A DNA stretch of 25,275 bases from a virus (lineage: Duplodnaviria; Caudoviricetes): positions 1 through 25,275 of IMG/VR virus record IMGVR_UViG_3300020043_003632. The stretch is one strand, 5' to 3'. Below are positions 13,395 through 14,271 of this stretch, in pieces. Made by a program: the position numbers and the translations under genes. Every line of letters starts with the position of its first letter. Position 1 is the stretch's first letter. Under the pieces are notes generated by a model, which worked only from the letters and a program-made list of their open reading frames with translations, searched no databases and was not told where the DNA came from.

Positions 13395-13402
13395 TATATT
13401 TG
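13395..13402 (+). promoter_or_regulatory. Bacteroidota -7 promoter box TATATTTG (would drive a short non-coding unit)
   Basis: Consensus match immediately after the HNH stop. Confidence 0.5.
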
Positions 13403-13406
13403 TGGG

Positions 13407-13467
13407 CTTTATTTCCTGACTTTTGTGTTGAAATTGGGCAACGATGAGAGGTTGTTGCCCTTTTTTT
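13407..13467 (+). ncRNA. Candidate ~60-nt small RNA
   Basis: Bounded by a promoter box and a terminator, with no complete ORF inside. Confidence 0.4.
13436..13467 (+). terminator. Rho-independent terminator
   Basis: GGGCAACGAT-gagag-GTTGTTGCCC followed by T7. Confidence 0.85.
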
Positions 13468-13469
13468 AT

Positions 13470-13477
13470 TATATTTG
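13470..13477 (+). promoter_or_regulatory. Bacteroidota -7 promoter box TATATTTG for the replication operon
   Basis: Consensus match directly after the terminator, ~100 nt upstream of ATG 13579. Confidence 0.65.
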
Positions 13478-13488
13478 TAGAGTATTAT

Positions 13489-13578
13489 TTGGAGTGTAAG
13501 AGATTCCAATGTTTAAAAGATATTTGCCCGTTGGGTTTGTGTGTACTCTTACTACCACAAACTCGATGGGCTTTTTTT
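13489..13578 (+). promoter_or_regulatory. Structured RNA leader: two hairpins with complementary loops, the second terminator-like
   Basis: Hairpin 13489-13509 (loop GTAAGAG) and hairpin 13526-13571 (loop CTCTTAC), then T7 and ATG. Confidence 0.75.
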
Positions 13579-14271
13579 ATGGCAGAAAACAAAAAATCTT
13601 TTCTCTTGTATTGCGACCAACAAGGGATATTTAACCAACTACCCGATGAAATAGCGGGGCGATTAATTAAGCACATATTCGCATATGTGAACGACGAGGA
13701 ACCAGTAACCGATGAACTAATCGTGAATATTGCGTTTGAACCAATCAAGCAACAATTAAAGCGTGATTTGGTAAAGTACAATCAATTCGTTGATAAACAA
13801 CGGGATAACGGCTTAAAAGGTGGCCGACCAAAGAAACCCAACGAAACCCAAAAAACCCAAGCCTTTACGGAAGAACCCAAAAAAGCCGATAATGTTAATG
13901 TTAATGTAACTGATAATGTTAATGTAAATGAAATAGATATAAAAAGAGATAAATCTCTTGTGGTGGATGGGAACGAAATTTTTTATGAAGATGCCTTTAA
14001 TCAGGTTTGGAAGGCTTACAATTATTCAAGTACACGCCAAGCGGGAAGCAAAGCGAAAGCGTTGGCCAAGTGGATGAAATTGAGTAACGATGATATTTTG
14101 GCAATTCGAACCCATTTACCCAAATTTATAAAAGCCCACGTCGAAGCGAAAAAAACCGAGTTTTTCCCCGACTTTACAACGTACCTGAATGGGCGGCGGT
14201 TTGAGGATGAAAAAATGCCCTACGCCACGAACCAAGCGAAAGGCGATGACTTTTTAAATAAATTTGTATGA
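13579..14271 (+). CDS. Phage replication initiator (DUF6291-like N-terminus, lambda O-like architecture)
   Basis: KKSFLLY..., NGLKGGRPKK, repetitive linker, FNQVWKAY...KAKALAKW...TYLNGRRFEDE C-terminal domain. Start reassigned from 13444. Confidence 0.75.
   Translation: MAENKKSFLLYCDQQGIFNQLPDEIAGRLIKHIFAYVNDEEPVTDELIVNIAFEPIKQQLKRDLVKYNQFVDKQRDNGLKGGRPKKPNETQKTQAFTEEPKKADNVNVNVTDNVNVNEIDIKRDKSLVVDGNEIFYEDAFNQVWKAYNYSSTRQAGSKAKALAKWMKLSNDDILAIRTHLPKFIKAHVEAKKTEFFPDFTTYLNGRRFEDEKMPYATNQAKGDDFLNKFV
13831..13959 (+). repeat. Iteron-like repeats and AT-rich tract within the initiator gene (putative origin)
   Basis: Four AACCCAA copies, then tandem AATGT(T/A) repeats, then inverted repeat AAGAGAT-AA-ATCTCTT. 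Confidence 0.55.

Follow-up and report, generated by a model that had tools for sequence, protein, structure and literature searches.

How is transcription into the replication-initiator gene of this phage controlled, and is the short leader that precedes it, with two hairpins whose loops are exact complements of one another, an RNA element or a coincidence of sequence? The window (the whole stretch of DNA analysed, 25,275 nucleotides) is part of a phage genome and carries portal, terminase and sigma-factor-like genes. The initial annotation had placed, directly upstream of the initiator, a promoter box, two hairpins with complementary loops, a run of seven T residues and then the ATG; each of these parts is borne out by the sequence and by folds, at the following positions.

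13436..13468, + strand: upstream terminator-like hairpin and T run, 10 pairs, tail TTTTTTTATT, directly before the leader promoter.
13470..13477, + strand: Bacteroidota -7 promoter box, TATATTTG; the same box heads related elements.
13489..13509, + strand: hairpin 1, 7 bp (one G-U) in folds, with loop GUAAGAG at 13496-13502.
13509..13634, + strand: uORF of 41 codons with its stop at 13634, crossing hairpin 2; probably incidental.
13510..13525, + strand: A/U-rich linker of 16 nt.
13526..13571, + strand: hairpin 2, 19 bp (16 bp with three G-U, one bulged U and 3 more bp), a predicted intrinsic terminator; its loop word CUCUUAC, at 13546-13552, is the complement of loop 1.
13572..13578, + strand: U7 tract, the predicted 3' end of the terminated leader, adjoining the start codon at 13579.
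13579..14271, + strand: DUF6291 replication-initiator-like gene, 230 aa (PF19808, E 2e-23; PHROG replication initiation/primosomal matches).

The -7 consensus and its -12 to -5 numbering (PMC6847099) would place the transcription start near 13482, and hence give a terminated RNA with a predicted length of 97 nt. This leader folds at -34.4 kcal/mol (z -5.4; none of 200 shuffles was as stable) against only -20.6 kcal/mol for the opposite strand, with hairpin 2 by itself reaching -27.9 kcal/mol (z -7.8). Neither the word nor its complement has a third copy in the 25-kb window beyond the two loops. On the window alone, shuffling of the 45-nt 5' region produced a 7-mer complement to the 13-nt loop region in 6119 of 100,000 trials; with chance thus at about 6%, a comparison with relatives was needed, and it proved decisive.

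From 357 viral relatives of the initiator the best 80 were taken and, along with 49 from genome contigs, provided 94 non-redundant upstream regions: 39 lacked the promoter box, 4 lacked a hairpin, and in 37 the hairpin reached -10 kcal/mol or lower. Within these 37, the hairpin loop could form at least six Watson-Crick pairs with the 5' region of its own leader in 31, as against 5.2% of 1332 cross pairs between leaders; for at least seven pairs, the figures were 27 of 37 and 1.8%. The expectation that complementarity would be kept in homologous leaders is therefore upheld, and it is kept by compensatory changes. A pattern describing hairpin 1 alone found 63 viral loci, many of them near-duplicates, with a matching loop 2 evident by eye in 61; of the other two, one has a loop mismatch and one no element. 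Across 20 distinct aligned rows the ‘kiss’ is 99.3% paired, both positions left free by the pattern covary, and the stems of hairpin 2 covary widely; the stem of hairpin 1 likewise varies in its letters yet still pairs in relatives that carry the same word. We are almost certain that the loop-loop RNA pairing is real.

A descriptor scan of all loci returned 78 non-redundant matches, reduced to 73 by the removal by eye of five (L105-, L142+, L205-, L212- and L157+, the last of which looks real with its hairpin mis-assigned), and this set is enriched by the pattern searches used to collect the loci. The 73 elements carry 49 different words, and 67 of them have hairpin 1. G-U pairs number 105 as against two A-C mismatches, and the sense strand is the stabler in 64 of 73, a result that detection on the sense strand itself favours; the earlier suggestion that the structure works as + strand RNA rather than as DNA is thus well supported. 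Hairpin 2 has the anatomy of a terminator, as had been claimed, namely a stem and a U tract (in the family set, U-rich tails with at least 5 T in 9 were a selection criterion), and on these predictions it very probably acts as one. An AGUA/GAA motif, found in 10 of the 73 compared with one for a mirror control, likewise speaks for selection on the RNA. The distance from word to word is tight (median 44 nt, CV 0.13, n=43, one element per word), and unpaired bases of loop 2 fall on the 5' side in 39 of 67 elements and on the 3' side in 4 of 67. In an alignment of 25 rows there are two invariant columns only. A covariance model, R1, was dropped, as its 22 matches recovered mostly training rows and it gave no match in five whole genomes, some of which are known to carry the element; its lower-stem pairs were partly out of register.

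That the element stands before a replication initiator holds for the window, with its DUF6291 gene, but not as a rule specific to initiators, since helicase, primase and HNH/GIY-YIG genes follow it as well. Downstream of the 73 elements, a DUF6291-type protein is encoded in 26 cases and there is no ORF in two; the 44 other proteins (one duplicate left out) comprise 13 HNH/NUMOD4/GIY-YIG nucleases, 8 helicase-, primase- or initiator-like proteins (the last label being our reading of DUF7833 and Lin1244_N), 3 others and 20 without a family. Viewed from the gene, of 48 non-redundant viral loci a detector placed the element directly upstream of DUF6291 in 22, and within 1 kb of it in a further seven. 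Many elements (L081-L143 and others) have a NUMOD4-HNH or GIY-YIG nuclease gene directly behind them, and in L048, L069 and L144 a nuclease gene sits between the leader and the DUF6291 gene.

Five of the six cultured Bacteroidota phage records contain the element (lillamy9-1, elemoA_7-9A, 11b, Harreka_1 and phi19:3, two records being read in part), according to a detector that missed the window's own element, gave one spurious match in the window and returned a single match in 816 kb of shuffled sequence. The sixth, RAP44, which has an integrase and a repressor, gave no match. Phages of Flavobacterium, Cellulophaga and Olleya are among the carriers, and four of the five list no integrase in the part of the record read; a sister phage, tooticki6-1, is called lytic (PMC7077304, in part). 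By eye, the element also precedes an initiator on a Pedobacter chromosome contig, and a blastn search of the leader against cultured phages found no match.

There is some variation in form within the family. In a sub-family of swapped polarity, hairpin 1 carries a word ending in AC and hairpin 2 a word beginning with GU (L011, L019, L020, L023, L026, L041, L050, L186, L190 and L218:23510), and most words keep the GU/AC end in one polarity or the other. Separately, the A/U-rich linker is near-identical in L021, L055:164 and L074, leaders with words that disagree at no less than half of their positions, a hint that the linker sequence has a role of its own, for example as a cleavage or pause site.

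The suggestion that this is not a named RNA family agrees with the Rfam search, which gave no match at gathering score in the window; among the leaders of 20 loci there was again none at gathering score, and of nine sub-threshold matches (up to E 10) none was to c4. A DUF805b match at L027:984-1016 (+) lies away from the leader and is unrelated. The literature searched holds no description of such a leader, though parts of the family may be present in the PMC10690425 alignments or the PMC5737381 supplement, which lay outside that comparison. In its available part, PMC10690425, a catalogue of viral candidate RNAs, tabulates candidates located before NUMOD4/HNH and VirE_N genes, and sub-families may therefore already stand there as unnamed hairpins. 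Taken together, we regard the element as a real, widespread and uncatalogued RNA family, whose function we infer from sequence.

The surroundings of the leader contain several further features. TAATGT hexamer repeats at 13888-13939, within the initiator gene, may represent origin iterons. Lambdoid origins occupy the corresponding place within the initiator gene. Upstream of its start, the initiator frame stays open across the whole leader as far as an ATG at 13444 (13444-14271, +), while relatives start at 13579, so that gene callers may stretch the initiator gene over the RNA element. The terminator-like site at 13436..13468, to which nothing similar was found in the fetched loci, would insulate the leader promoter from upstream transcription and would force expression through hairpin 2. 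A second TATATTTG box is followed about 60 nt later by this terminator-like hairpin (13395-13468, +), making a 62-nt RNA possible; its loop pairs weakly with loop 2 (-4.9 kcal/mol, 6 bp including one G-U), and the fetched loci hold no sequence similar to 13395-13468.

To which known systems, then, might the leader be likened? In plasmid antisense control, as in pT181 attenuation and the rep pseudoknot of IncI and IncB plasmids, loop-loop recognition controls the replication initiator. Systems of the pT181 and IncI types depend on an antisense RNA transcribed convergently, to which IncI adds a leader peptide; neither a convergent antisense promoter nor a leader peptide is supported here. The analogy to plasmid rep control drawn in the initial annotation thus fails on its antisense partner: convergent minus-strand boxes within 300 nt occur at 17 of 73 elements, with a mean of 0.25 against a background of 0.26, and there is none for the window. 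A minus-strand TAnnTTTG box does lie at 14121-14128, within the initiator gene, pointing at the leader from about 540 nt away, and boxes of this kind are not enriched within 300 nt in the family. The leader-peptide part fares no better, as a uORF over the terminator is not a conserved feature. The uORF start codon is AAG in the closest relative (L002), and of the 31 non-redundant metagenome sequences that match the window's words, the 11 that proved to be true elements all lack a uORF crossing hairpin 2; for hairpin-1-bearing elements in general such a uORF is present in 7 of 67. The role proposed for the 41-codon uORF is accordingly not supported, and its presence at this locus is probably incidental.

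In topology, the closest likeness is to the guanidine-IV riboswitch (GGAM-1), in which the loop of a small 5' hairpin pairs with the loop of the terminator hairpin, the terminated RNA is of similar length (~93-97 nt), and the kiss competes with closure. In the available parts of PMC11611296 and PMC7736828, the kissing loop is described as hindering the terminator, competing with stem elongation via the linker and forming little once the terminator is complete, with a steric model set out in PMC7736828. The leader shares with it the loop complementary to a terminator loop. However, the guanidine-IV loop bases are highly conserved and a ligand is required (same sources, in part), whereas here there are 6-10 freely varying Watson-Crick pairs, no conserved ligand-pocket bases and no sugE or guanidine-related gene downstream, and the elements are found in Bacteroidota phages before replication and nuclease genes. 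The window's loops also differ from those of the guanidine-IV constructs compared.

In logic, the leader possibly resembles P4 CI or c4. In P4, a leader-derived CI RNA terminates transcription of the replication genes through flanking seqA and seqC, and in Gifsy-1 the short form of IsrK targets its read-through form in trans and activates translation (PMC4825925, in part); in both, the operon's leader yields an RNA whose target is that same transcript, and the P4 replication genes are shut off by premature termination. CI differs in being processed out of the transcript, with targets on both sides (same source), whereas here the complementary word lies in a terminator loop and the window has an upstream copy only; flanking targets do occur in 4 of 11 relatives that lack hairpin 1. 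The c4 RNA of P1/P7 (RF01695) likewise uses same-strand antisense loops with a variable specificity word, its a1b1 targets having 7-nt loop words (PMC5320573, PMC8198154, PMC2864571, each in part). Unlike the two-hairpin leader, c4 has three stems, is cleaved by RNase P and regulates the icd/ant antirepressor genes (PMC5320573, PMC8198154, in part). We found neither the Rfam model nor the three-stem fold, the downstream gene in the window is DUF6291, and no antirepressor family appears among the 44 other downstream proteins, 20 of them without a Pfam match. Each of these systems, then, has defining features that the leader lacks.

Synthesising these findings, we tentatively favour a model in which the leader is a ligand-free kissing-loop attenuator, such that the kiss in cis would give read-through until terminated copies, as they build up, prevent that kiss in trans. 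The observed starting point is a promoter box, hairpin 1, linker, hairpin 2 with its U7, and the ATG, with loop pairing kept in relatives. Transcription from about 13482 is predicted to stop at the U tract, yielding the 97-nt RNA. By analogy with guanidine-IV, loop 2 would exit the polymerase some 43 nt after loop 1 and pair with it while the 3' arm of hairpin 2 has yet to be made; the resulting tether would slow closure of the terminator base, allowing the polymerase to enter the initiator gene. On this analogy, we think it probable that the cis kiss favours read-through. In the last and weakest step, finished leaders, having a full hairpin 2 and free loops, would accumulate and capture the loop of nascent transcripts, so that the terminator closes and the replication genes are shut down. 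That this trans ‘quench’ by terminated leader is the regulatory input is a suggestion we hold with some reserve; the outcome would be either ‘burst-then-off’ or copy-number feedback, specific to each word.

The trans step draws support from elimination: no ligand pocket is apparent, antisense promoters are not enriched, and nothing else in the window could pair with the loops, which leaves the leader as the sole complementary RNA there. The idea of a separately encoded trans RNA was rejected, there being no further copy of the word in the window. In relatives without hairpin 1, the word adjoins a uORF ATG in five of six, and 4 of a hand-picked 11 have a second copy of it ahead of the main ATG, as against 2 of 110 cross pairs; this minority form points to an antisense logic. 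In L055, L064, L068 and L153 (upstream of the DUF6291 match), the same word of 7-11 nt stands before both the uORF ATG and the main ATG, and its complement sits in a long hairpin.

Other observations bear on how a kiss could work and what it might serve. Fully stretched, the linker of the window reaches about 10 nm, the stacked helices being about 9.2 nm long, a ratio of reach to stack length of 1.09; the family median is 1.47 and base pairs must open in 33% of 67 elements, so that steric exclusion alone is not general. Universal steric exclusion was accordingly rejected on linker reach, and strand-wrapping or kinetic delay would have to contribute; a conserved extended antiterminator was also rejected as a general feature (p 0.84). 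The window's kiss is weak, at -6.9 kcal/mol (weakest decile of the family), and its terminator is among the strongest, while across the family kiss strength and terminator strength correlate with the opposite sign to that expected (rho -0.32 to -0.36); this speaks against a switch in fine balance. In seven close pairs, change in the words is no quicker than in the stems (8/104 versus 23/197, p 0.32), and an earlier rate test hinting at faster change was set aside, since it is conditioned on identity outside the word and takes in spurious alignments. As the words are not accelerated and the same word recurs in many phages, an immunity ‘address’ is not favoured; unaccelerated words and carriers listing no integrase lead us to prefer a feedback on the output of the replication genes to lysogenic immunity of the classical kind. 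Co-resident copies have non-matching words in all nine loci with more than one match (one extra L210 match being probably false), which is in keeping with trans action but could be neutral divergence.

Of the rival explanations, the one that ranks close behind the favoured model, doubtful as we consider it, is an attenuator acting in cis only, in which kiss and terminator closure compete, the balance depending on how fast the polymerase moves, on Mg2+ or temperature, or on a protein of phage or host, and no RNA acts in trans. It would account equally for the covariation and spacing, sits well with words that are not accelerated and with an element found in phages listing no integrase, and could find a protein site in the non-canonical internal-loop motifs of hairpin 2. 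It leaves unexplained, however, those relatives that have the word at a uORF start and a repeat at the main start, and an unsystematic look noticed no conserved neighbouring protein. Those same relatives fit a c4- or CI-type antisense cassette acting in trans or on translation only, with the hairpin-2 loop as effector, loop 1 as mere target and a cis kiss of no effect on termination; their target-antisense-target layout (4 of 11), the c4 a1b1 targets, which are small hairpins with similar 7-nt loop words (PMC2864571, in part), and the ending of hairpin 2 only 7 nt before the ATG, where start-proximal structure inhibits initiation in Flavobacterium (PMC6847099, in part), all speak for it. We nonetheless judge it unlikely, given that loop 1 is clear of any start codon, and a downstream target is lacking, in the window and in most relatives, that there is neither a c4 cloverleaf nor an Rfam match, and that the tight word-to-word spacing fits a co-transcriptional contact in cis.

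Ribosome-mediated attenuation via the 41-codon uORF might be argued from the way in which that frame crosses hairpin 2 in the window and from the ATG directly after the word in five of six hairpin-1-less relatives; the AAG of L002, the absence of a crossing uORF from all 11 same-word relatives and its rarity among hairpin-1-bearing elements (7/67) make it very improbable. We give as little credence to a small-molecule riboswitch of the guanidine-IV type, which would share the topology and a similar size (93-nt terminated product): 49 words among 73 elements and two invariant columns in 25 rows leave no ligand pocket apparent, and the downstream genes are for replication and nucleases, not transporters. 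Finally, chance complementarity in an ordinary terminator, or a structure at the DNA level, could be entertained at the roughly 6% estimated from the window alone, but is scarcely credible in view of the compensatory changes in relatives, the sense-strand bias of G-U over A-C, and the 31 of 37 own-leader pairings against 5.2%.

The timing of replication genes in Bacteroidota phages is largely undescribed in the literature searched, and the presence of the element in cultured Flavobacterium, Cellulophaga and Olleya phages makes these ideas testable now. The family would provide natural examples, working without a ligand, of the kissing-loop antitermination that has been proposed for guanidine-IV and, if the trans step is true, a library of orthogonal RNA switches for Bacteroidota. 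We speculate, more cautiously still, that a protein-free, ligand-free RNA ‘counter’ may be widespread in Bacteroidota phages, in which one 100-nt leader would be antiterminator, terminator and its own trans repressor, and each 6-10 nt word an independent channel, with replication genes on in a naive cell and off as leader accumulates; if so, phages might use it to control copy number or exclude superinfection, including phages that lack a lysogeny module.
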